Assembly: GCA_038065235.1 (NCBI GenBank)
Contig: JBBTRK010000014.1
Location: 16,629 to 80,628 of the forward strand
From: Patescibacteria group bacterium
GTDB taxonomy: Bacteria; Patescibacteriota; Patescibacteriia; PEXW01
Reading direction: 5' to 3'
Length of the DNA: 64,000 nt
Below the pieces are notes generated by a model that did not search any database, was not told the DNA's origin, and saw nothing but the letters and a program-made list of their open reading frames with translations. A program made the translations under genes and the position numbers. The first letter of the stretch is position 1. The number at the start of each line of letters is the position of its first letter. Shown piece by piece: positions 8,518 through 42,002 of this stretch.

Positions 8518-9138
8518 ATGGCTCCCATCCTCCACAAGCAGAAACGCGCCATCCTGGAATACCTTCAGAAGTCCATACAGGACAACGGTTACGCCCCTAC
8601 GCTCACGGAAATTGCCAAAGCGTTTAACCTCTCCTCCCTTGCTACAGTGCACGAGCACCTGGCGTTCTTAGAGGAAGCTGGTTTCATAAAACGCGACCGA
8701 AATAACGCGCGAGGCATTACCCTATCTGAACCCGAGCAGGATGAGGAAGCAAGCGCCACCTCCATGCTCTTGCCGTTAGTTGGCACAATTGCTGCTGGCT
8801 CCCCTATCGAAGCATTTGAAGACAAGCAGGATATGGTTGCCGTGCCGCGCGAGCTGGTCGGCCGTAAGAATGCGTACATCCTCAAAGTTCGTGGTGACTC
8901 GATGATCGAAAGCCTCGTCGCCGATGGCGACCTAGTAGTGGTGGAGAAGAGCCAACTCGCTCATGATGGTGATATGGTTGTGGCTATGCTGGAAGATGGC
9001 ACGGCGACGCTGAAAAAATTCTTCCGCAAGAAGAACTTCGTCCGACTGCAACCCGCGAACGTCAACTACAAACCCATAGACGTGAAGAACGTGACCATCC
9101 AAGGAAAAGTCATAGGCGTCATTCGGAAATTTTCCTAA
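8518..9138 (+). CDS. lexA: LexA repressor (S24 peptidase)
   Basis: 206 aa. N-terminal wHTH (TLTEIAKAFNLSSLATVHEHLAFLEEAGFI). Ala-Gly cleavage site (VGTIAAGSP). Ser (GDSM) and Lys (ATLKK) catalytic dyad context. Confidence 0.9.
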   Translation: MAPILHKQKRAILEYLQKSIQDNGYAPTLTEIAKAFNLSSLATVHEHLAFLEEAGFIKRDRNNARGITLSEPEQDEEASATSMLLPLVGTIAAGSPIEAFEDKQDMVAVPRELVGRKNAYILKVRGDSMIESLVADGDLVVVEKSQLAHDGDMVVAMLEDGTATLKKFFRKKNFVRLQPANVNYKPIDVKNVTIQGKVIGVIRKFS

Positions 9139-9179
9139 GCTATTTTTTTACTTTACAGCTTCGGTTTTTCTTCGGCACA

Positions 9180-9992
9180 ATGAACTTCTTCACTCGCCTC
9201 TCACAACGCGCATCCAGCAACGGCACAGCAGTCGCCCACGTGCGGCTGTGGAACTTTGTCGCGAGCGTTGAACAAGCGCTACAGCCATCACTGCGGAACA
9301 CGCCATTCGCTGTCGTTGATGCAAACAATGCATCTGGACGAGTTATCGATGTAAATGAGCTGGCACGAGCATTGGGCGTACGACCTGGAACAACCGTACA
9401 CCGTCTACGGCAACGTTTCCTAAACGTGCAGATCCGCCAGTACAACCAGGAACGTATGCAAGGTTTCTCAAAAGCTTTCTTCACCCAGGCGAAGCGTTGG
9501 GGCAGAGTTGTCAAAACGGACGAAGCTGGCTATGCAATAACCATTACCATTCCAGCGGTTAATGCCCTGGAACGCGCCGCAGTATTCATGCACATGCAAG
9601 AAATGTGCTGGAAAGAGCTCGAGTGCAACATCACGGTTGGCATTGGTTCAACTATTGCATTTGCAAAGTTGGCTGCCATAGCGTGTGTCGAGCCAGGGTT
9701 TCGCTACTTCGATTGCCATGAGCATCAGGTACTCAATACGCTACCCGTGAGTATCATCCCGGGCATAGGTCGACGGACGTCTGCAGCGCTCGTGCAGCTG
9801 AACGTCCCAACGGTGTGGCACTTCTTGCAGCTCGATCCACAAACGGTCGAGCAGCTCGGCGGGCGGTCTTTGCTCCGCCTCTACCGGCAATACATTCTGG
9901 TGGCTGCATTACCATTCATCGAGCCACTATACACACCATCGGTGAGAATGCACCACCTCTTCCAAAGCACCGCTACAAGCAGCGTAGCGTAA
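9180..9992 (+). CDS. Y-family DNA polymerase paralog lacking catalytic aspartates (ImuB-like), truncated before the little-finger domain
   Basis: 270 aa. Aligns to the DinB N-terminus: DinB IIHVDMDCFFAAVE versus VAHVRLWNFVASVE here, so D8/D10 are replaced by R/W. Also SANY...FGV-like VDANNASGRVIDVNELARALGVRPG and HhH-like LPVSIIPGIGRRTSAAL. Immediately downstream of lexA. Confidence 0.6.
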   Translation: MNFFTRLSQRASSNGTAVAHVRLWNFVASVEQALQPSLRNTPFAVVDANNASGRVIDVNELARALGVRPGTTVHRLRQRFLNVQIRQYNQERMQGFSKAFFTQAKRWGRVVKTDEAGYAITITIPAVNALERAAVFMHMQEMCWKELECNITVGIGSTIAFAKLAAIACVEPGFRYFDCHEHQVLNTLPVSIIPGIGRRTSAALVQLNVPTVWHFLQLDPQTVEQLGGRSLLRLYRQYILVAALPFIEPLYTPSVRMHHLFQSTATSSVA

Positions 9993-15580: not shown

Positions 15581-17562
15581 TGGAGGTTTGCAAAGCCAAT
15601 ACTGAGTGTACTCTCGGTGTCTGCATACTGCTTCACAGCCGAAGCAGCGCCCAGTATGACACTGACAATCGTTCGGCCAGTCGTTTTCCCCTTCACTTGG
15701 GTAATTAAACAGTTCCCAGATTCCTCAATATACCCCGTTTTAATACCCGTGACTTGCCAACCAGTATCCAGCATTTTGTTTCGATTCTTCACGGTGTGCA
15801 CTTTCTTCGTGTTGCGGGTACTGAACGTGTAACTCTCTTTCACCGTGGCTCTGGAAATCTCTGGATTCTTGAATGCAATTGCCGCGAGCTTGGCCATATC
15901 ACGTGCCGACCCTTGATTCGCTGGGTCGAGCCCAGTGGGATCAGCAAAGGTCAGTGTGGCAAGCCCGAGTGTTTTGGCTTTCTCGTTCATAAGCTTTACG
16001 AAAGCTTCCTCGCTGAGGTTTGTGGAACGCACAAGAGCGCGGGTAGCATTGTTCGCTGACCCAATGAGCATTGCATGCCAAAGATCATTCGCGGTCATGG
16101 TCTCGCCAGGATTCACGTACAAGCACGAGCAGAACAGTGCTTTATCCGTCTTCTGGTACGTTACGATATTCTTAAAAGTTGGTTTTCTATCCAAGTAAAC
16201 CAGCGCCGTCATGAGCTTTGAAAGGCTCGCAATAGGATGAGCCTCATCTGCATTCTTCGCAGCGACTATCGTCCCCTGCTCAACGTCGTAGGCCACGCCA
16301 GCGGTACTACTCACTGGTAAAGTGACGGGTGTTGGAGATGTGGGATCAACGGCCACTGGGGATATAACTGGATTACTCACTGTATCCCCTAACACTTTAG
16401 GATCAACTGCGGCAACCCGAACCCGAGCGAGCCCACCATTTGAACCTTTAATCTTCTTAAACGCCGTGTAGACTAAGTCAACAACCCGACCCCGTACATA
16501 AGGCCCACGAGATACCACTTTCACAATCGTCGATTTGCCATTCTCTAAATTCGTAACTTTCAGCTTGGTTCCCATGGGGTACCGATTGTGTGCTACGCCA
16601 TCTGGATGCTTCTTACTCTTATACCAGCTGGCAATGCCAACTTCTTCACCGACATCATACACTACGACAGCGTACCCCATGACGTAAGCGGTATTACTCC
16701 TCGTCACTTCCCAAACTTTTACACTGGGGTTATAGAAGAGTACGCGCTGCGGATAGAAACCATTTCCTGATACTTTTGGGGTAATGACGACGCCTTGTGT
16801 GAAACGTTGAAGAATACCATCAGCCCCGCGCAGGCCCACCTGGAGTGCATTTGCCCGTTGTTTGTACCTAGCGGGAAGCGGTGCAGGCAGCGTAGCATCT
16901 GGCGTAAGGACAAAGGTTGCAGCTTGAGAGTAGGCTTGGGCTCGAAGGGTAAGGGTATAAATTGGTAAAACGAAATTCTGACCCGTACTACCAACCGGTA
17001 CATCTACTACGGTACTCGTCGTCGTTACGGCTAAGCCATCATTGTACGCCCCCGGCTTGGTTGCGAGGTCAGCCGCTGGCACAATGACAGTGTGGAGACG
17101 TAACGTGGAGCCGGTGAGTATATTCGCTGTATCAATCTTGCCACCAATAATGCTCCAGGTCATTGTCGTCTCATTGTAACCCAAGAGGACTGTCGCAGAA
17201 TCAGGCTGCGGCGTCGCCGGCACCTTCAGCCAGAGGGATTTCGCTGCCAGAGGCGTATCGGTTGCTGTATCTACATCAAACTTGTACGCTGTTCCCGCTT
17301 GGCTGTACCGAGTAGGGAGCGGCGAGGGCAGAACAACTCCAGGCGCTAGGGTAACTCTTGCTGGGACGCTCACTGCAGCGGCGCGAATGTTCACAAGGAA
17401 ACCATCGCCAATCCGAATCTCCCCTCCGGCATGGTCGGCAGTAAGATCAACGACAGTCGGTTCTACAGCCACCGTTGCCCGGACCCAGCCGAAGCAGGCC
17501 AGGACAATAAGGAGACTAATGAGACGATACGTTCTTGTCATGGGGTGGGTCATTAGGTACAC
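15577..17562 (-). CDS. Secreted fusion protein: RlpA-like double-psi beta-barrel domain plus serine-type D-Ala-D-Ala carboxypeptidase (S11/PBP5-like)
   Basis: 661 aa, signal/TM at N-terminus. DPBB segment GIASWYKSKKHPDGVAHNRYPMGTKLKVTNLENGKSTIVKV. PBP motifs SLSK (SxxK), SANN (SxN), KTG. 4-bp overlap with ftsE. Confidence 0.7.
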   Translation of the reverse strand: MYLMTHPMTRTYRLISLLIVLACFGWVRATVAVEPTVVDLTADHAGGEIRIGDGFLVNIRAAAVSVPARVTLAPGVVLPSPLPTRYSQAGTAYKFDVDTATDTPLAAKSLWLKVPATPQPDSATVLLGYNETTMTWSIIGGKIDTANILTGSTLRLHTVIVPAADLATKPGAYNDGLAVTTTSTVVDVPVGSTGQNFVLPIYTLTLRAQAYSQAATFVLTPDATLPAPLPARYKQRANALQVGLRGADGILQRFTQGVVITPKVSGNGFYPQRVLFYNPSVKVWEVTRSNTAYVMGYAVVVYDVGEEVGIASWYKSKKHPDGVAHNRYPMGTKLKVTNLENGKSTIVKVVSRGPYVRGRVVDLVYTAFKKIKGSNGGLARVRVAAVDPKVLGDTVSNPVISPVAVDPTSPTPVTLPVSSTAGVAYDVEQGTIVAAKNADEAHPIASLSKLMTALVYLDRKPTFKNIVTYQKTDKALFCSCLYVNPGETMTANDLWHAMLIGSANNATRALVRSTNLSEEAFVKLMNEKAKTLGLATLTFADPTGLDPANQGSARDMAKLAAIAFKNPEISRATVKESYTFSTRNTKKVHTVKNRNKMLDTGWQVTGIKTGYIEESGNCLITQVKGKTTGRTIVSVILGAASAVKQYADTESTLSIGFANLQ

Positions 17563-25617: not shown

Positions 25618-25797
25618 CTAAACGGACTGGGAATCCCCAAGCTTTCGTTGGTAGGTTTCAACAAGTGCACTTTGAGCACGGTTGGCTTCTTGCGCAGCCT
25701 GCTTAATCAACTTTTTTTGCTCTCCTGAAGGGAGGCGAAAAAAGTTCTGGCGACCATGTTGGCTGCCTTTAAAAAATGAAAGAAGACGTGTAATCAT
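25618..25797 (-). CDS. 59-aa helical ORF overlapping the zeta-like gene stop (ATGA); candidate partner or antitoxin-like protein
   Basis: MITRLLSFFKGSQHGRQNFFRLPSGEQKKLIKQAAQEANRAQSALVETYQRKLGDSQSV, hand-translated. One codon short of the ORF-track cut-off. Start and stop overlap the upstream gene, which suggests translational coupling. Confidence 0.4.
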   Translation of the reverse strand: MITRLLSFFKGSQHGRQNFFRLPSGEQKKLIKQAAQEANRAQSALVETYQRKLGDSQSV

Positions 25798-26495
25798 AAG
25801 CTTTTTCTAAGTTGATCTTTAGTATACGGACAAACAATATGATTGTCAATATTATCAATATTGAAGCGTGTCTTTTTTACGCTTTTATTTGACCAATCTT
25901 TTTCTATGAGAAAAAGCTCCACATCCTTCTTGAACATTTCTTTTACGCGATTTGCATTTTCTCTGGCAGCAAAAAATGCCTCGATAAAAGCTTCTTTAGG
26001 TAAGTAACGACCTTCTTCTTTTTCACGAATCTGTGTGAACTTCCATGCTACTTCTGGCTCTTGATAAATATAAATAATCCCAATTTTCCGTTTACGCTTA
26101 ATTGAACGTGCAACATCTTCTATACAATATTTGTCGTCTGCGAATGTCCCATCAAGTAGAATATTCTGCCTTTCTTTTAAACAATAATCGTATAGTTTTT
26201 GCACGCCAAGAGCGGAAGCACCCTGTACTTCGTTAGAGTTACTACCTGTATATTGTGGTAGCATCTTCTTAATTTCATCAGCATCAATTCGGACACATTG
26301 TATTGACGGCTTTCGGCGAGCCAAACTCTTCACTAAACCTTCAGAAAACTCTGTTTTTCCTGCACCGGGTGAGCCCGCCATAAAAATGGTAAAGGGATCG
26401 TCCATTGGCGGATATGCACGTGGGTCGGCAAAACGAACGATGAGCTCGTCACGATGTGCCTTTAAAAAATCCACTGCGTCTTCAGCAATGCTCAT
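25794..26495 (-). CDS. Zeta-toxin-family-like P-loop kinase (AAA_33 / PezT-like)
   Basis: 233 aa. Walker A FMAGSPGAGKTEF, then the CVRIDADEIKKMLPQY segment matching the zeta catalytic region (ViDxDxfR). Low GC. Confidence 0.6.
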   Translation of the reverse strand: MSIAEDAVDFLKAHRDELIVRFADPRAYPPMDDPFTIFMAGSPGAGKTEFSEGLVKSLARRKPSIQCVRIDADEIKKMLPQYTGSNSNEVQGASALGVQKLYDYCLKERQNILLDGTFADDKYCIEDVARSIKRKRKIGIIYIYQEPEVAWKFTQIREKEEGRYLPKEAFIEAFFAARENANRVKEMFKKDVELFLIEKDWSNKSVKKTRFNIDNIDNHIVCPYTKDQLRKSL

Positions 26496-26501
26496 GGTGA
26501 T

Positions 26502-29039
26502 TTATGCCTTCCGCTCCGCGACCATCGGTGGCGGGGCAGCTGCGCCGAGCTGGGAGCGTTCCAGGATTTCTTTTTCTACGGTTTCCCGCAGGACGCCGAA
26601 CTGTTTGCGTGAGAGGCTTACCAGGTGCTCAACGAGGCCAGGTGTCGCTGGGGCCAGTGGCAACGTCTTCATGGTGAATGGCTTCGACATGGTGTTGTCG
26701 ATGAGGAGCTTTACAATTGCGGTGTACTTCTCTACGTTAGTTACGTCGAAGGCACTGAAGGTGGGGGCGAACGTCTGGGCGAACGTCTCGGCATCTTCCA
26801 CACCCACGCGGAATGCCACGACTGTGCCGACGTTACCGAACACCGCGTCGCGAATTTTTGTATCTGCGCCCTGCACCAACTGCCCGACGTACTGGTGGGC
26901 AATGGTGAGGTTCAAACGGTACTTCCGCGCTTCAGAAAGGATGGTCGCGATGGAGTCGGTAATGAAATTCTGGAACTCGTCGATGTAGAGGAAAAAATCT
27001 CTGCGCTGCTCTTGGGGTAATGATGCTCGACGTAAGGCTGCCATCTGAAGCTTCGAAACAATAATGAGACCCAGGAGGTTGGCGTTCACCTCGCCAGTTG
27101 TACCTTTCGAGAGGTTCACCAGCAAAATCTTGCCTTCGTTCATAATGCGCTGGAAGTCGAAGCCGCTCTTCGATTGACCAATGACATTACGCATCATGGT
27201 GTTCTCCACAAACCGGCCGACCTTGCTAATGAGGTAGCCCAGCATTTCGGACTTATGGAAGTCGCTGGTCTTCGCCATCTCCTTTTCCCAAAACGCCCGC
27301 ACAATAGGGTCAGTCACTTTGGAGACCTTTACCTTCTGAAACACTGGGTCGGTGAACATCCGGGGGATTTCGACGATGGTACCCGGGTGCTCGGGATCGG
27401 ACATGAGCGTGAGCATGACGTTGCGCATGTTGTGCTCGAACATTGGGCCAATCATCTCGGGTGGGAAGAGTTTCATGAAAATAGAAATCATCTCCTGCAC
27501 TGCGAAGTCTTTATCCTCGGGGTTCTCGGCATCCAGCATGTTCAAACCAACCGGGGCCTGCATATCTGACGGATTGAAATGGATAACGTCCTTCAAGCGA
27601 TGGGCGGGTATCCGACCCATGATGTCGACGATGAGGTCTCCGTGCGGATCCACGACGCACACGCCATCACCGTTCGTAATGTCCTGCAAAGCCATCTGCG
27701 TCATGAGTACAGACTTGCCCACCCCAGACTTCCCAATGACGTACACGTGGCGGCGGCGGTCTTCCCGGGCCACACGGATTTTCGCCTCTTCGCCGCGGTA
27801 GTGGCTGGTGCCGAGCAGTACGCCAGTTTTTGGCAAATTGACAGGCGGAGGGGCATTGCGCGAAAGCACCCAACGAATGTTCGGAGTTTCTGTGGTGGCG
27901 AGCGGTAAGTGCCACAGGCTGGCAAGTTCTTCAATACTCAACGTGGCGTAACGAGGCCGAAGGGTGAAACGATTGCCATCGAACATTCGGTATATGAAAC
28001 TTCGAATGATTGTTTCGTTAGAGTGCCAAGCATTCTTCCAGAAACGATTCCCCGTTTCGGGGGAAGCGTACTGGCCGAAGGCAGAAATGATATTCTGTAA
28101 ACGTACGGAAGCAGATTGCTGGGTGGCACTACTGACGATAATGCGAATGTTCACGTCGAGCGCTGGCTTGGTGTTCTTCTCTTGCAGGCGTTGGATGAGT
28201 TCCTCTTGCACAGGACTGACAGGTTTGGGCATTTCCTCTTGCTGCACACTCTTCTTCGTACTGAAGAACATGCTCCAGAGCCCACCAATAATTTTCCCAA
28301 CTAAAGAAGGGTTCGCCTTCCCACCCGCACGGAGATTCCGAATGGATGCTGCGGCACGGGTATGCCAGCGGGGGTGCGAAGACCGGCACACGTACTGGAT
28401 AACCGCTGACTCATCAGGATTCAGTTTCGAGAGCGCATTGGTTAAACCCCCGAGCGGGTCAACATCCATGCGACGGTACGAGAGAATGGGGAAGAGCGAC
28501 CGTTGCCGAAGACTCAGTGCTGCGGCCGCGACGTGGGACGTGGGACGGAAAGGGTTATACTCGGGCGTGACGAGTATTTCGGCGTCAGCGTACTGGGCTT
28601 GAATCTGCTGCTCCATGAACTCTTTCATCGGCTTTGGAACCACAACGTAGAAGGTTATGAGCTCACGGTCGGCAACGATTTCTAAACTGAAGTGGTCGTT
28701 CCGCCCCCGGCCGAGCGTGTGGTACCAACGCTGCGCGCGCATGTTGCCTAGGAACGAGAAGAATGACTCCCCCACGCTAATCTGCTCCTGCATTTGCTGG
28801 ATGCGCGATGGTCCTTTCCCTGAATCCTCTTCTTGCTGCTCCTTTGGCAGCGTTACCATGAGGCAGACGAGTTTTTCGGTCGATGGTTTTGCGCTCCGTC
28901 GACGAATGATGAAGAAGATGACCAATCCGAGCCCAACCACTGCGCACGCAATACCAAACTGAACCCAAGGAAAAACCGTGGCATAGTCGTTCTCGAGGGT
29001 ACCGACCTGCGCCTGCGCCGCGTGGACGAACTGCAGCAT
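26502..29039 (-). CDS. Type IV coupling-protein-like ATPase (VirD4/TraG/TraD family) with N-terminal TM and a ~400-aa N-terminal extension
   Basis: 845 aa. Walker A HVYVIGKSGVGKS followed by the T4CP-typical VVDPHGDL (compare vLDPKGE). Walker B FLYIDEFQNF. N-terminal TM GIACAVVGLGLVIFFII. Confidence 0.65.
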   Translation of the reverse strand: MLQFVHAAQAQVGTLENDYATVFPWVQFGIACAVVGLGLVIFFIIRRRSAKPSTEKLVCLMVTLPKEQQEEDSGKGPSRIQQMQEQISVGESFFSFLGNMRAQRWYHTLGRGRNDHFSLEIVADRELITFYVVVPKPMKEFMEQQIQAQYADAEILVTPEYNPFRPTSHVAAAALSLRQRSLFPILSYRRMDVDPLGGLTNALSKLNPDESAVIQYVCRSSHPRWHTRAAASIRNLRAGGKANPSLVGKIIGGLWSMFFSTKKSVQQEEMPKPVSPVQEELIQRLQEKNTKPALDVNIRIIVSSATQQSASVRLQNIISAFGQYASPETGNRFWKNAWHSNETIIRSFIYRMFDGNRFTLRPRYATLSIEELASLWHLPLATTETPNIRWVLSRNAPPPVNLPKTGVLLGTSHYRGEEAKIRVAREDRRRHVYVIGKSGVGKSVLMTQMALQDITNGDGVCVVDPHGDLIVDIMGRIPAHRLKDVIHFNPSDMQAPVGLNMLDAENPEDKDFAVQEMISIFMKLFPPEMIGPMFEHNMRNVMLTLMSDPEHPGTIVEIPRMFTDPVFQKVKVSKVTDPIVRAFWEKEMAKTSDFHKSEMLGYLISKVGRFVENTMMRNVIGQSKSGFDFQRIMNEGKILLVNLSKGTTGEVNANLLGLIIVSKLQMAALRRASLPQEQRRDFFLYIDEFQNFITDSIATILSEARKYRLNLTIAHQYVGQLVQGADTKIRDAVFGNVGTVVAFRVGVEDAETFAQTFAPTFSAFDVTNVEKYTAIVKLLIDNTMSKPFTMKTLPLAPATPGLVEHLVSLSRKQFGVLRETVEKEILERSQLGAAAPPPMVAERKA

Positions 29040-29040
29040 A

Positions 29041-29559
29041 CTATTCTTCTCTAGCGACTAAACGGACGAGCTTTTGGGCTTTGATTTTTGCCTCTTGCTC
29101 CACGAAGAACTGGTTCACCCCGGGGAGCGTGCCGAGCCACTTCTTGAGCACGGCAATGACCGCATCGAGCTTCACCTTCACCTGTGCTAGAAGACCAGAT
29201 ACTTCTCGCGCGGCTATCTCCCCTGCCACCTTGAACTTCTGCTGCTCTGCCGGTGGCAAGGCGATGAAAATGTCATGGAGCCCTTCGGAAAGAACCGACT
29301 CAATCTGTTTCAGCTGTTGCTCTTCGGTGTTGATTGGCAAAGGCATGGTAGCCGGCGGGGTCTGGCTGGGGAACTCCTTCACCTGAGATGGAACCTCTTG
29401 GTGCGGCTCGAATCGGGAACCGTGCTGCTCCAAGGCCTCGCGAACCTTCTCGGGCCGCACTTCAGGTACACCGCTCTGCCCTTGCTCCACGAACGCAAAA
29501 ATGTCTTCCGGCTCTTTCTCCGGTAGGTTTTCGGGACGGGTTTGCGCTGGTGTAGACAT
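29041..29559 (-). CDS. Hypothetical acidic protein
   Basis: 172 aa. Pro/Glu-rich N-half and a helical C-half. 2 bp from the T4CP-like gene. Confidence 0.45.
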   Translation of the reverse strand: MSTPAQTRPENLPEKEPEDIFAFVEQGQSGVPEVRPEKVREALEQHGSRFEPHQEVPSQVKEFPSQTPPATMPLPINTEEQQLKQIESVLSEGLHDIFIALPPAEQQKFKVAGEIAAREVSGLLAQVKVKLDAVIAVLKKWLGTLPGVNQFFVEQEAKIKAQKLVRLVAREE

Positions 29560-29592: not shown

Positions 29593-29907
29593 CTACGGTT
29601 CCTGCGATGGTGGGGTTGCCGGTGGTTCTTGTAGTTTCAATTTCTCCTGCTTACGCTGCACCCACAGCGTATGGAAATACATGTACGTACCGGTTAGAGC
29701 CATGATGAAGAGCACAATACTGAAGTACGTACTCACTTGCCCGTGCAAGTACCGTACACGACCAGCGGATAACCACGCCGGCAGCCACTCGAACCAGCTC
29801 GGGTACCGCATGATGGAACCCGTACCCGACATAACCACGAACAACCCAAGGAAGATTAGCACGAGGTACCGGTGGATTCTTCGACTGAACGTGTAGAGAT
29901 TAATCAT
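29593..29907 (-). CDS. Small membrane protein (2 TM)
   Basis: Start set at MINLY (GGGAGG lies 9 nt upstream) rather than the longer ORF-track start. Two hydrophobic helices. Confidence 0.45.
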   Translation of the reverse strand: MINLYTFSRRIHRYLVLIFLGLFVVMSGTGSIMRYPSWFEWLPAWLSAGRVRYLHGQVSTYFSIVLFIMALTGTYMYFHTLWVQRKQEKLKLQEPPATPPSQEP

Positions 29908-30406
29908 CGTCTTCATCCTCCCGTTCCCCGCTTTGTGGAATAAGCGTACTAACATTGGCATTCACTTGGGTGATCGTATTCGCTGTCGTCGTACTGCCGA
30001 GTGTTCCCAAGCGGAGAGCAGCTAGGTCAGCGCTCGCGCTTGATGAATGCGTGCCATTACCACCGCGAGTTGCAAAAGCTGTGGTCGCGTCCTTCCCGCA
30101 ATACGGAATAATACGACTTGCGCCTCCCGGGTGTTTGGTGAGATACCCGGTCACGGCGTACACTCCCTTACTGACAATGATCCAGCAGTCACTTGCACTA
30201 CTGTGCCTCGCAACTGTTGCAACATCGAGATTAACCGAAGGAGAAGCTGAGGCAGAGGTATTCGTGAGCCCTGACGTAGTATTCGTCGTGGGGCTACTAA
30301 CGAAGGGAACTGAAATAACTAAACTATCGTACCGAGCCGAAAAAAACGCGACAATTCCAACAACGGCAACGAGACCGACAAGTCCAATGGTATTCTCTGT
30401 CTTCAT
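29900..30406 (-). CDS. Membrane-anchored cytochrome-b5-like heme/steroid-binding domain protein
   Basis: 168 aa. N-terminal TM. Cyt-b5 signature HSSASDCWIIVSKGVYAVTGYLTKHPGG...IIPYCGKDATTAF. Thr/Ser-rich linkers. Acidic tail. Confidence 0.6.
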   Translation of the reverse strand: MKTENTIGLVGLVAVVGIVAFFSARYDSLVISVPFVSSPTTNTTSGLTNTSASASPSVNLDVATVARHSSASDCWIIVSKGVYAVTGYLTKHPGGASRIIPYCGKDATTAFATRGGNGTHSSSASADLAALRLGTLGSTTTANTITQVNANVSTLIPQSGEREDEDDD

Positions 30407-30466
30407 AGGGGTAGCGCAAGAATAGCATCTGTGCGCGTTCTATTAGAGCCCTGTACCATATGGCTG

Positions 30467-31054
30467 CTACTCGCCGAGTGCTTGGGCAACTTTCCCAGCA
30501 ATCTTCAGGTCTGGTACAAGATCTTTGCCATTGGTATCCCAACTCACCGGGCAAGCATGGCCGGGGTTATTGCGCACATAGGTCAAGGCTCGGAGCTTCC
30601 GCACTATTTCGCTTGCCGAACGGCCAATGTTCTCGGCCACAACTTCTGCTGACTGGAGCAAACCTTCAGGATCGATAATGTACACACCCCGATCTGCAAT
30701 GCCACTGACTTCATTAAGAATACCAAGTGTTCGGGCAAGGAGCCCGGCGTGATCAGCAGCCAGTGGGTAACGCACATCTTTGAGTAAGGTCTCGGTTTCG
30801 ACCCATGCTTTATGGGTGTAGACCGTGTCTGTACTCACCGCCAGAACCTCTGCCCCAAGTGCCTGAATGTCGACGTAATTCCTGGCAAGGTCACGTAATT
30901 CAGTTGGACACACGTACGTGAAGTCCGCCGGGTAAAAAAACACTACAAGCCACTTCCCTTTGAATGCAGCGAGGTTTACATCCTTGCGGCTGCTATCGTG
31001 TGGATGGTACGTATCAAGATTGAAGTCTGGAAATGCTTGGCCAATTTTGGGCAT
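30467..31054 (-). CDS. Peroxiredoxin (AhpC/TSA family)
   Basis: 195 aa. Peroxidatic Cys motif FFYPADFTYVCPTEL. Resolving-Cys region NPGHACPVSWD. Confidence 0.9.
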   Translation of the reverse strand: MPKIGQAFPDFNLDTYHPHDSSRKDVNLAAFKGKWLVVFFYPADFTYVCPTELRDLARNYVDIQALGAEVLAVSTDTVYTHKAWVETETLLKDVRYPLAADHAGLLARTLGILNEVSGIADRGVYIIDPEGLLQSAEVVAENIGRSASEIVRKLRALTYVRNNPGHACPVSWDTNGKDLVPDLKIAGKVAQALGE

Positions 31055-31072
31055 AGGGATATTACTCAGGAC

Positions 31073-31891
31073 TTAAACTGGGCGAAGTGTGCCTGCGAAC
31101 ACCTGCCAGGCCAGCAGTGACTTCGCCACGAGGCTGAGGATAATATACGCTCGCTCACCGTAAAGGTAATCCTTCCACTTCCCAATCTTCTTGTACTGCA
31201 ACACCATATTGATTGCGAAGCAGTTGAAGAACAGGAAGATGGAAAAGAAAATCCAGTACACGAACGTCGGTGCGTGTCCGTTTGGCCCGCCCGAACCGAA
31301 GAGGTAGAACGCGACAATGAGCCAAGGGACGAAACCGGCAATACTCCCGAAAATGAATGACGTCCAATCAGTGCGCTTCGTCGTCTGGTTGTGCAACTCC
31401 ATCATCCAGCCAAAGAGCAACATCATCATGTTCAGGAAGAAAATGAGAAGGAGACTAGAGAGGTCGGCCATACCCGTGAGCATGACGACGATGACAATCA
31501 TGAGCGAACTGGAAAACGCGTACTCAATCCAGCGTGCCAAGTTCATGCCTTTCTTCAAATTGTTCTCGTACCATGCTCGCACCGTTGGGAGGCACGATAC
31601 CGCGAAGTGCGCAAAGGCAGAGAGAAAGAAAAAACCTGCAACGAGCGGCCCAATTTGAATATCTGCAATGGTCTTGAGTACGGGCACAAGCATGTTCCGA
31701 ATTGGATCCATCTGCACATACGCCGTAGTCACCGGCAAATTGAAGCTGCTGCTAGCAAAGAGCAACGCCACACCTTGCAAGAAGTGCAAACATGCCATAA
31801 CGATGTTGAACCGATAGAGCTTCTTCAACTTACGCTGCGTAGAGGTGATGGCGGGCATTTCGATAGACGTTGATGTTACTTTCATGAGCAC
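31073..31891 (-). CDS. Heliorhodopsin (7-TM retinal protein, inverted topology)
   Basis: 272 aa. Strong similarity to characterised heliorhodopsin segments: NLARWIEYAFSSSLMIVIVV...LLFGWMMELHNQ, GFVPWLIVAFYLFG, and TM7 ERAYIILSLVAKSLLAWQVFAGTLRP with the Schiff-base Lys in LVAKS. True start may be at Met12. Confidence 0.8.
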   Translation of the reverse strand: MLMKVTSTSIEMPAITSTQRKLKKLYRFNIVMACLHFLQGVALLFASSSFNLPVTTAYVQMDPIRNMLVPVLKTIADIQIGPLVAGFFFLSAFAHFAVSCLPTVRAWYENNLKKGMNLARWIEYAFSSSLMIVIVVMLTGMADLSSLLLIFFLNMMMLLFGWMMELHNQTTKRTDWTSFIFGSIAGFVPWLIVAFYLFGSGGPNGHAPTFVYWIFFSIFLFFNCFAINMVLQYKKIGKWKDYLYGERAYIILSLVAKSLLAWQVFAGTLRPV

Positions 31892-32026
31892 TAACAGTAT
31901 AGCTAAAACATCAAAGGTTTAAAATGTACTACCCCATTGACTGCCTTGTTACCCAGGTATAGGCTAGGCAACTCAACAGAAACCTTGTTCATTCCCAAAC
32001 ACCCAAATTGAAAGGAGGGTACAAAT

Positions 32027-33074: not shown

Positions 33075-33473
33075 CTATTCCGTAGTCTGCCCGTCAAAGT
33101 CAGCCTCGTTGGCAGCTGCTTCCGCTTTCGTCGTCCGGACAATCTGATCCTTATGGTGGGCTGGGCTGTAGAGCGTGTAAAGTTTCAACGGTTCGGTTGC
33201 CGAGGTGTTGATGACGTTGTGCTTTGCACCGGCAGGCACGATGACTGCTGACCCGTCCTGCACCATAGACTCATTACCATCGATAATGACTTTCCCCTGC
33301 CCGGCTTCGAAGCGGAAGAATTGGTCATTGTCTGGGTGCACCTCCATGCCAATCTCCTCGCTCGGCTGCAGACACATAAGCACCAGCTGCGTGTGCTTGG
33401 CGGTGTACAGCACCTTGCGAAAATTCGTATTCGCGATGGTTTCTTGCTCGATGTTCTGGTTGAATCCGTGCAT
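33075..33473 (-). CDS. Cupin-domain protein
   Basis: 132 aa. Two-His cupin motif region (GMEVHPDNDQFFRFEAGQGKVIIDG...VIVPAGAKHNVIN). Confidence 0.65.
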   Translation of the reverse strand: MHGFNQNIEQETIANTNFRKVLYTAKHTQLVLMCLQPSEEIGMEVHPDNDQFFRFEAGQGKVIIDGNESMVQDGSAVIVPAGAKHNVINTSATEPLKLYTLYSPAHHKDQIVRTTKAEAAANEADFDGQTTE

Positions 33474-35444: not shown

Positions 35445-35535
35445 GTCATCCTGAACCCCGAGTATGCCGAGGGGTGAAGGATCTTGCCTGCCGCTTTATT
35501 GGCCCGCAGGATCCTTCGCTGCTGCTCAGGATGAC
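35445..35535. repeat. 91-nt structured inverted-repeat element, copy 1 (GTCATCCTGA...TCAGGATGAC)
   Basis: Termini GTCATCCTGA/TCAGGATGAC plus an inner helix AAGGATCTTGC/GCAGGATCCTT. The first 48 nt are identical to copy 2 at 35849..35939. Confidence 0.6.
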
Positions 35536-35826: not shown

Positions 35827-35848
35827 GGAAGGAACGGTTTTCTTTACT

Positions 35849-35939
35849 GTCATCCTGAACCCCGAGTATGCCGAGGGGTGAAGGATCTTGCCTGCCTGTT
35901 AACCGACCTGCAAGATTCTTCGCTGCTGCTCAGAATGAC
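35849..35939. repeat. 91-nt structured inverted-repeat element, copy 2
   Basis: Same termini (one G-to-A change). The inner helix is kept by different G-U/compensatory changes (GCAAGATTCTT versus GCAGGATCCTT). The 12-nt central loop differs from copy 1. Confidence 0.6.
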
Positions 35940-41324: not shown

Positions 41325-42002
41325 TTACTTCCTCGGCCCCAGCACCACGGTGAACTCCCCTTTCACGGCATCGGCGCGCAGGGCGGCGAGTGCGTCGGCG
41401 GGTTTGCCACGGTAGAGGTGCTCGAAGGTTTTGGTGAGCTCCCGCGCTACAAAGACTTCCCGTTCTGGGCAGTTATCCACGAAAAACTGGAGAACCTTCT
41501 CCACCCGGTGTGGCGACTCGAAGAACACCGCTGGCCGCTCATCGGCAACCATATTTTTTAGGATTGTCTGCCGGCCGTTCTTGAGCGGCAGAAAGCCGTA
41601 GCCCGTGTACTGCTGCAAGGGGAAACCGCAGACGGACAGTGCAGTTGCCATTGCCGACGGCCCGGGGATTGGGACCACCTTCACCTCGGGGCACTCACGG
41701 TACACACGCTCGACGAGCCGGCCGCCGGGATCGGCGATGTTTGGCGTACCACGGTCTGCCACGAGCGCCAGAGATTCTCCTCGCTTCAAACGCGCAATAA
41801 TTGCGTCTTCCCGGGCCCCACGGGTGTGCTCGTCGTAGCGGACGAGCTCTTTCTGGGCGCCAATGTGTGTCAGAATCTTGGCAGCTTCCCGCGTATCTTC
41901 GGCCAGCACGGCGTTTACGTGTGCCAAAGTTTCTTTCGCGCGGACGCTAAGATCAGCTAAGTTCCCAATTGGCGTAGCAACGATGTACAGCGTACTAGAC
42001 AT
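41325..42002 (-). CDS. rsmI: 16S rRNA 2'-O-ribose C1402 methyltransferase RsmI
   Basis: 225 aa. Tetrapyrrole-methylase fold N-terminus LYIVATPIGNLADLSVRA. Confidence 0.85.
   Translation of the reverse strand: MSSTLYIVATPIGNLADLSVRAKETLAHVNAVLAEDTREAAKILTHIGAQKELVRYDEHTRGAREDAIIARLKRGESLALVADRGTPNIADPGGRLVERVYRECPEVKVVPIPGPSAMATALSVCGFPLQQYTGYGFLPLKNGRQTILKNMVADERPAVFFESPHRVEKVLQFFVDNCPEREVFVARELTKTFEHLYRGKPADALAALRADAVKGEFTVVLGPRK

Follow-up and report, generated by a model that had tools for sequence, protein, structure and literature searches.

Heliorhodopsins (HeRs) have been proposed to act as sensory switches for light-induced oxidative stress on account of their adjacency to glutaredoxin, GSHPx and catalase genes, and redox domains are over-represented near HeRs in 240 metagenome-assembled genomes (MAGs) (PMC8612252, Bulzu 2021). 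The idea has been extended to the Candidate Phyla Radiation (CPR) (PMC9166423, Chiriac 2022), so that both the occurrence of HeRs in CPR and their link to oxidative stress are already published. Regulation of an operon partner by a HeR has been reported for AbHeR and glutamine synthetase (PMC9529153), TfHeR and photolyase (PMC9769723), and OcHeR and the OmrDE ABC transporter (PMC11109279). Here, we analysed a HeR gene and the genes that follow it in a stretch of 64,000 nucleotides (the window; positions 16,629 to 80,628 of contig JBBTRK010000014.1, assembly GCA_038065235.1) from a Patescibacteria group bacterium. Four consecutive open reading frames (ORFs) on the minus strand, from position 31891 down to 29593, encode the HeR, a peroxiredoxin (Prx), a cytochrome b5 and a protein with two transmembrane (TM) helices related to the PepSY_TM family. 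We propose that the locus combines two units, HeR-Prx and b5-PepSY_TM, joined by deletion, and that the first of them couples light to peroxide defence, a reading to which we give about an even chance of being right. The features of the locus, with the evidence for each in parentheses, are given below, where L numbers denote the loci used for comparison.

31896..31923, minus strand: sigma-70-like promoter match TTTAAA-16-TATACT directly upstream of the HeR start (consensus scan)
31073..31891, minus strand: HeR gene (PF18761 profile, alignment with TaHeR 6IS6, residue transfer from 48C12)
31055..31072, minus strand: HeR-Prx spacer, 18 nt, free of terminators (terminator scan)
30467..31054, minus strand: AhpC/Prx1-type typical 2-Cys Prx, 195 aa, cytoplasmic (PF00578, AhpC 1WE0)
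30407..30466, minus strand: 60-bp conserved stretch upstream of the b5 gene (alignment with L176, L170, L172, L003 and L182)
29900..30406, minus strand: single-domain cytochrome b5 (b558-like), 168 aa, with an N-terminal membrane anchor, probably extracytoplasmic (PF00173, 1CXY)
29593..29907, minus strand: mini-PepSY_TM protein, 104 aa, two TM helices (PF03929, gene calls)
26502..29559, minus strand: 172-aa acidic protein (unk172) and an 845-aa ATPase resembling DUF8128 and type IV secretion system (T4SS) coupling proteins (T4CP-like) (synteny)

The locus resembles the published HeR loci (Bulzu 2021, Chiriac 2022) in that a monoderm-type lineage has a HeR and a thiol-peroxide defence gene in the same direction and very close together, and the proposed logic, from light to defence against reactive oxygen species, is the same. 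The loci of Bulzu 2021 carry glutaredoxin, GSHPx, glyoxalase or catalase, mainly in Actinobacteria and under a criterion of <10 bp, whereas the gene beside the window HeR is that of an AhpC-type 2-Cys Prx, 18 nt away, and the arrangement is limited to three species of a Kerfeldbacteria-like CPR clade. As in the operons of AbHeR, TfHeR and OcHeR, the HeR of the window lies in an apparent operon with an enzyme that is a possible target.

The HeR product matched PF18761 (Heliorhodopsin) with E=1e-96 over the entire profile (positions 1-242 of 242) and scored 323 bits, where the cut-off is 26.7. The same Pfam search gave no Bac_rhodopsin match and no other family at E<=0.01 except DUF3611, which stayed below its cut-off of 27 at 16.8 bits. 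The nearest solved structure is TaHeR from Thermoplasmatales archaeon SG8-52-1 (6IS6, also 7U55), with E=5e-78 and 55% identity over 245 aligned residues, and HeR 48C12 (6SU3) was found with E=1e-60 in the structure-sequence search. With these two proteins the window HeR shares the lysine of the SxxxK motif, the Glu counter-ion, two His residues and the C-terminal AWQVFAGTLRP segment. The Schiff-base lysine is K257 (SLVAK), aligned with K241 of 48C12 and the TaHeR lysine; the Ser of SxxxK is S253, aligned with S237; the single counter-ion in TM3 is E123 (RWIEY), aligned with E107; and the conserved His pair of the proton-accepting group, H36 and H95, corresponds to H23 and H80 of 48C12 by alignment transfer. 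The alignment covers all seven TaHeR helices, and a crude hydropathy scan gives 6 segments, missing the polar TM3. The basic cluster RKLKKLYR before TM1 would fit the inverted topology with the N-terminus inside. In contrast to the archaeal TaHeR, the window HeR has a Patescibacteria host and an uncertain start codon and is known from sequence alone. A GTG start gives 272 aa, ATG 31885, which the gene callers chose, gives 270 aa, and ATG 31858 gives 261 aa; the HeRs of relatives have 261-263 aa and begin at the equivalent of M12, and the likely starts are ATG 31885 or ATG 31858. The protein is a bona fide HeR that probably binds retinal. The sequence-only reading, made earlier from the letters and ORFs, had named a heliorhodopsin with its hallmarks and a Schiff-base lysine in TM7; the full-profile match and the alignment of K257 bear this out, and its suggested check against heliorhodopsin and type-1 rhodopsin profiles came out in favor of the former.

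The second gene, which the same reading had called a 2-Cys-type peroxiredoxin 18 bp downstream on the same strand, is indeed one by its profile, catalytic Cys pair and 18-nt gap. The product matched AhpC-TSA (PF00578) with E=2e-35 and Amphibacillus xylanus AhpC (1WE0) with E=1.6e-52, and the AhpC proteins of A. xylanus, Salmonella and E. coli (1WE0, 1YEP, 4O5R; E=1e-49 to 1e-52) share its Cys pair and the Arg of ADRG. The peroxidatic Cys lies in the PxxxTxxC motif (PADFTYVCP; FVCPTE aligned to AhpC), the catalytic Arg in ADRG, and the C-terminal resolving Cys in ACPVSW, aligned with 1WE0 and 4O5R. No TM segment was detected in the Prx. Unlike the classical ahpCF system, the Prx has no AhpF gene within 64 kb, and the Pfam annotation of the window shows neither AhpF nor a pyridine-nucleotide disulfide reductase; because AhpF is absent nearby, the reductant of the Prx is presumably thioredoxin. 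The closest other Prx homologues are likewise CPR proteins. A recent horizontal acquisition of the Prx from another phylum was considered and rejected, since the next homologues (62-69% identity) include Patescibacteria-annotated proteins where the source is annotated.

The promoter-like site upstream of HeR agrees with 9 of 12 consensus positions, and as a pattern match it only implies a promoter function. On the minus strand from 31891 to 28065, that is, from HeR to the middle of the T4CP gene, the consensus scan, which works by pattern matching, found no terminator-like hairpin. The stop-to-start spacers between HeR and Prx are 18 nt in the window, 15 nt in L001 and 23 nt in L176. Because a promoter-like site precedes HeR and a terminator is absent, HeR and Prx are likely co-transcribed, and transcription may read through from HeR-Prx into b5. 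The first unit would then consist of HeR and a cytoplasmic AhpC-type Prx transcribed together from the promoter upstream of HeR. The peroxide scavenger would be made whenever the photoreceptor is made, and the Prx would be recycled by thioredoxin. Such co-expression would fit published proposals in which HeRs are rhodopsins of a sensory or regulatory kind, linked to photo-oxidative stress.

The history of the gene string was followed across 80 species-representative genome loci, 80 metagenome loci, the contexts of the closest HeRs and those of Prx and PepSY_TM homologues, giving a census of about 140 non-redundant HeR loci. Contigs that match the window exactly share its arrangement but represent the same organism. 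The immediate clade, with HeRs at least 76% identical, comprises 12 species-level lineages. The order is most complete in L176 (the same as L177), with HeR, Prx, Na_Ca_ex, an opposite-strand Metallophos gene, a Cyt-b5 gene for a two-domain protein of 279 aa, PepSY_TM, two unknown genes, unk172 and the T4CP-like ATPase. L170, L172 and L003 show this order minus Prx, and the window shows it minus Na_Ca_ex, Metallophos and one b5 domain. In L001 (the same as L168), the order is HeR, Prx, opposite-strand Metallophos, unk172 and T4CP, and the b5-PepSY_TM pair is missing. The gene after Prx differs in all three cases, being b5 in the window, the opposite-strand Metallophos in L001 and Na_Ca_ex in L176. 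Because relatives carry Na_Ca_ex and an opposite-strand Metallophos between HeR and b5, the string in the window is best read as two units juxtaposed by deletion. In L181, a two-component system is followed by b5, PepSY_TM, opposite-strand Metallophos, unk168, T4CP, PrmC, RF1, S2 and Tsf, and HeR is absent within the sequenced flank of b5-PepSY_TM. Since the pair occurs there without HeR, it appears to belong to the T4CP-side backbone and to be separate from HeR. The unk172 and T4CP-like backbone is syntenic with b5-PepSY_TM in L003, L170, L172, L176, L181 and L182.

Further evidence on this point comes from the 60 bp that precede the b5 gene (30407-30466). They align with the stretch between the divergent Metallophos and b5 genes of the relatives and include a conserved TGCTAT(T)CT block, TGCTATTCT at 30419-30427. 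Because in the relatives b5 is preceded by a gene transcribed divergently from it, this region would carry a promoter, and the window has probably retained it as the b5 unit's own promoter. The second unit would accordingly be an independent pair with its own upstream region, b5 and mini-PepSY_TM, continuing into the unk172 and T4CP-like genes.

The cytochrome b5 matched PF00173 (Cyt-b5) with E=2e-16 in the Pfam search. Its best match in the PDB is 1CXY (1.3e-12), the b558 of Ectothiorhodospira vacuolata, a bacterial extracytoplasmic b5 with which it shares both axial His residues, in the motifs KHPGG and THSS aligned to the 1CXY ligands, and both Cys residues. The protein consists of one TM helix (residues 6-24), a Ser/Thr-rich linker and the b5 domain; unlike 1CXY, it is tethered by this N-terminal helix and linker and is paired with a His-containing partner with two TM helices. 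Because a signal-anchor and the b558-like Cys pair are present, the b5 domain is predicted to lie outside the membrane. The b5 proteins of close relatives have two tandem domains and 274-281 aa, compared to one domain and 168 aa in the window.

L170:11255-12091, L172:7978-8820, L176:9966-10805 and L181:2695-3519: two-domain b5 genes of relatives

Since the N-terminal anchor and the second domain remain, the window b5 appears to be the product of an internal domain deletion.

The partner of b5 is encoded in an ORF spanning 29593-29961, in which the gene callers place the start at 29907, overlapping the b5 stop by 8 nt. It matched PepSY_TM (PF03929) with E=7.7e-7 and 29.7 bits against a cut-off of 28.8, covering profile positions 134-226 of 295 only, and no relative was detected in the PDB by sequence. 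The protein shares with the PepSY_TM family the HRxL...TG helix motifs with a conserved His; it differs in having two TM helices in place of the usual four or more and in having no PepSY domain. The ferric-siderophore reductase FoxB is an example of this family. Since a word-indexed homologue search returned 10 close relatives, an exhaustive profile search was used instead, which defined a mini-PepSY_TM family of about 167 clusters, mostly of 70-120 aa. Among 110 family representatives, 95% retain H12 and 100% retain H55, one His at the start of each helix, and G30 and G73 are essentially invariant. In addition, the mini-PepSY_TM module is fused to an ICMT/PEMT-like membrane domain in the protein P0371. 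The gene identities given earlier, a membrane-anchored cytochrome-b5-like protein and a protein with two TM helices after Prx, are in keeping with the PF00173 and PF03929 matches.

Based on these features, a dimer of the two-TM protein might ligate haem through the two invariant His residues, with one haem near each membrane face, and feed the extracytoplasmic b5 domain. The b5-PepSY_TM pair would most plausibly be a minimal conduit for electrons across the membrane, perhaps a ferric reductase, and unrelated to HeR signalling. The literature search found no publication on the pairing of cytochrome b5 with a mini-PepSY_TM protein. Genes of the b5 type also occur near HeR at three further loci. 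In L031 (4036-5320), the order is a CDF exporter, an Nramp Mn/Fe importer, two b5 genes, PepSY_TM, a 180-aa protein and then HeR; in L059 (2545-3168), a b5 domain and C-terminal TM helices form one polypeptide, whose gene adjoins a cupin and a DUF1295 gene; and in L075 (8968-9360), a b5 lipoprotein gene adjoins that of a dihydroorotate dehydrogenase.

The sequence-only reading had asked whether HeR and Prx recur together in related genomes, and the census gives a divided answer. HeR is followed by Prx in three sister species only, namely, the window, L001 and L176, with spacers of 15-23 nt. Among these three, the Prx proteins are 91, 87 and 87% identical and the HeRs 83, 80 and 86%; because these identities are roughly congruent, vertical co-inheritance of HeR and Prx in the three species is indicated. 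Several observations, on the other hand, weigh against a functional reading of the locus. Of the 12 lineages in the immediate clade, 9 lack HeR-Prx, and so do about 130 HeR loci that are more distantly related. In a neighbour-joining tree of HeR, lineages with and without Prx are intermingled, which implies repeated loss or recombination and therefore weak selection on the pairing. Prx orthologues (63-66% identity) in other CPR sit in unrelated contexts away from HeR, and short same-strand spacing is usual in compact CPR genomes and so weak as evidence of linkage. For the second unit, the PepSY_TM match lies just 0.9 bit over the Pfam threshold, and the haem and the ferric-reductase role are wholly inferred.

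These observations lead to the alternative that best survives, a neutral adjacency, in which the slot after HeR is variable, the Prx stands there by chance and the two genes share only a transcript in a gene-dense genome. We regard this as a serious alternative, somewhat less probable than the coupling of light to peroxide defence. The occupants of the slot do differ: the gene after HeR is Na_Ca_ex in L167, L175, L172, L170 and L003, an AAA_21 ATPase in L004 and L081, and a 124-aa unknown in L002, and in more distant lineages L005 has a GIDE gene on the opposite strand and L072 a response regulator (Response_reg). Moreover, no neighbour family fills more than 5 of the 71 downstream or 5 of the 83 upstream positions. 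Against chance placement, the pair is kept at 15-23 nt in three species despite differing rearrangements downstream, redox domains are statistically enriched near HeRs (PMC8612252), and independent CPR lineages put other genes for defence against reactive oxygen species (ROS) or UV beside HeR. At the roughly 140 loci, the immediate same-strand neighbours of HeR include three AhpC-TSA genes (from one clade), three desulfoferrodoxin genes, three pyrimidine-dimer glycosylase genes and one MsrB gene. As a distal control, 143 genes lying 3-6 kb from HeR at the same loci were considered, among which none of these defence families reaches 2 members. Each case of a defence gene beside HeR is nevertheless a single clade-level event, which also tells against the coupling: the enrichment rests on 3-4 events and is only suggestive. 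As a rough estimate, with about 1% of CPR genes in such defence families, 1-2 events would be predicted per about 100 independent neighbour positions, compared to the 3-4 observed. Weighing these points, we consider HeR-Prx a plausible but lineage-restricted and dispensable operon, which would couple light exposure to peroxide defence. The neighbours in question, together with further genes found beside HeR, are located as follows.

L027:5600-5974, L036:826-1203 and L110:2227-2601, same strand: desulfoferrodoxin (superoxide reductase) directly upstream of HeR; two of the three loci are from Berkelbacteria
L008:6793-7125, L009:6802-7134 and L082:6796-7134, same strand: pyrimidine-dimer DNA glycosylase, 7 bp downstream of HeR, in a different clade
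L072:6955-7323, same strand: stand-alone response-regulator receiver beside HeR
L058:6834-7226, same strand: Cupin_2 protein beside HeR, 63% identical to the cupin of the window (33075-33473)
L167:1948-2994, L170:8984-10030, L172:5701-6747, L175:1942-2961, L003:6785-8002 and L176:7707-8753: Na_Ca_ex after HeR (after HeR-Prx in L176)

A second alternative is that illuminated HeR acts directly on its neighbour, binding the adjacent Prx at the membrane through its cytoplasmic face and boosting or switching its peroxidase or chaperone activity. The precedents of HeR-regulated operon partners (PMC9529153, PMC9769723, PMC11109279) speak for such a mechanism, by analogy, as does the cytoplasmic and co-operonic nature of the Prx. 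However, the Prx falls outside the ten recurrent HeR-neighbour classes of PMC11109279, and sister species whose HeRs are 80-87% identical do without this partner, so that we consider direct regulation unlikely. Least probable is the view of the sequence-only reading that HeR, Prx, b5 and the two-TM protein form one light-sensing oxidative-stress module, with the haem proteins in HeR-dependent redox signalling or detoxification: the genes are co-directional with gaps of 18 nt and 60 nt and an 8-nt overlap, no terminator is predicted, and three non-syntenic loci have b5-type genes no more than about 3 kb from HeR (L031; L059 and L075 on the opposite strand), but Metallophos and Na_Ca_ex split the units in the nearest relatives, b5 retains the upstream region that would act as a promoter in relatives, L181 has b5-PepSY_TM-unk-T4CP without HeR and L001 has HeR-Prx without the b5 pair, and the b5 pair of L031 comes after metal transporters, so that the four-gene operon model was rejected on synteny and the conserved b5 upstream region.

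A recurrent link of HeR with Cupin_2 (L031, L058, L059) or with b5 (L031, L059, L075) was also considered and set aside, since about 3 non-syntenic cases of each among about 130 loci are indistinguishable from chance. As a separate observation, Na_Ca_ex, of the Na+/Ca2+ exchanger family, is the commonest post-HeR gene in the clade of the window, lying about 130-150 bp downstream on the same strand, and has been lost from the window. It is a commoner neighbour of HeR than Prx is and lies outside the published HeR-neighbour classes.

Downstream of the two units, at 25794-29559, the genes for unk172, the T4CP-like ATPase and a kinase of the zeta-toxin family (233 aa) follow one another on the same strand, 1-6 nt apart. 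The zeta-toxin gene is confined to the species of the window, and unk172 and the T4CP-like ATPase are kept across the clade. A mobile-element origin, prompted by the T4SS coupling-protein-like ATPase and the zeta toxin, is unsupported, the backbone of ATP synthase, T4CP-like gene, PrmC, RF1, S2 and Tsf being syntenic across species.

With regard to the organism, the CPR-like host supposed from the sequence has been confirmed, since the window matches a contig of GCA_964353065.1 (Patescibacteria group) with 100% identity, as it does contigs from several sequencing runs, among them ERR3858127, SRR32696697, SRR32696698 and SRR32696706. The nearest HeRs come from Patescibacteria and Candidatus Kerfeldbacteria MAGs, and the remaining genes of the window are typical CPR housekeeping genes. 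Six tRNAs were found in the window by Rfam and tRNA scans, none of them near the locus, and the Rfam scan found no RNA element near HeR. Among the approximately 50 Pfam-annotated genes of the window, there are no retinal or carotenoid (blh, crt) and no haem (hem) genes; the sole TP_methylase match (41325-42002, 225 aa) is probably an RsmI-type rRNA methylase and not a haem enzyme. The question of the cofactor source has already been taken up in the literature for retinal: CPR rhodopsin carriers, which lack blh, need only seconds to bind all-trans retinal supplied from outside, and the same holds for TaHeR (PMC9296517). In a preprint of 2025, the topology of HeRs is argued to serve exogenous carotenoid uptake. 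It is also worth mentioning that, among the closest CPR MAGs with a HeR, many have names that refer to groundwater or aquifer samples (NC_groundwater, Crystal Geyser 'CG', Hainich H51, 'GW1' wells), for example, L009, L010, L016, L018, L023 and L081; a light sensor so common in nominally dark groundwater habitats is odd.

Three other observations were made outside the locus. First, a direct-repeat palindromic element occurs on the minus strand in two copies of about 92 nt, at 35445-35535 and 35845-35939 (GTCATYCTGAGCAGCAGCGAAGRATC ... GGGGTTCAGGATGACA). The copies lie in the 617-bp gap between atpG and atpD and flank a hydrophobic ORF of 36-41 aa, and the 26-nt core of the repeat occurs 2 times in the window against 0 expected by chance. 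Because the relative L170 has just 5 bp between atpG and atpD, the pair looks like an insertion of the type of miniature inverted-repeat transposable elements (MITE) or repetitive extragenic palindromes (REP). Second, at 8518-9992 a LexA repressor gene precedes that of a Y-family polymerase (IMS domain, 270 aa) that looks truncated; the two are an SOS-type pair, possibly relevant to the response to UV or light damage. Third, in L162 (ENA ERZ1286166 contig_2308, 1.09 Mb, near-complete), HeR, atpD, the T4CP-like gene and others are fragmented and their neighbours are 100% identical; the fragmented genes are probably frameshift errors of long-read assembly and not pseudogenes.

The function of HeRs is debated, and several HeRs regulate an enzyme encoded alongside them. 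With its 55% identity to the crystallised TaHeR, the window HeR and its standard AhpC-type Prx form a compact candidate pair for binding and activity assays, which would directly test the photo-oxidative-stress hypothesis in a CPR protein background. If direct regulation were true, it would link a photoreceptor to an antioxidant enzyme and add a fourth biochemical output class for HeRs. Some caution is called for, in that the apparent four-gene module is an accident of deletion and the HeR-Prx pairing is dispensable in sister species and not a conserved system. Finally, the PepSY_TM-like family with two TM helices and two His residues, paired and occasionally fused with an extracytoplasmic b5, may bear on redox or iron handling in haem-auxotrophic CPR.

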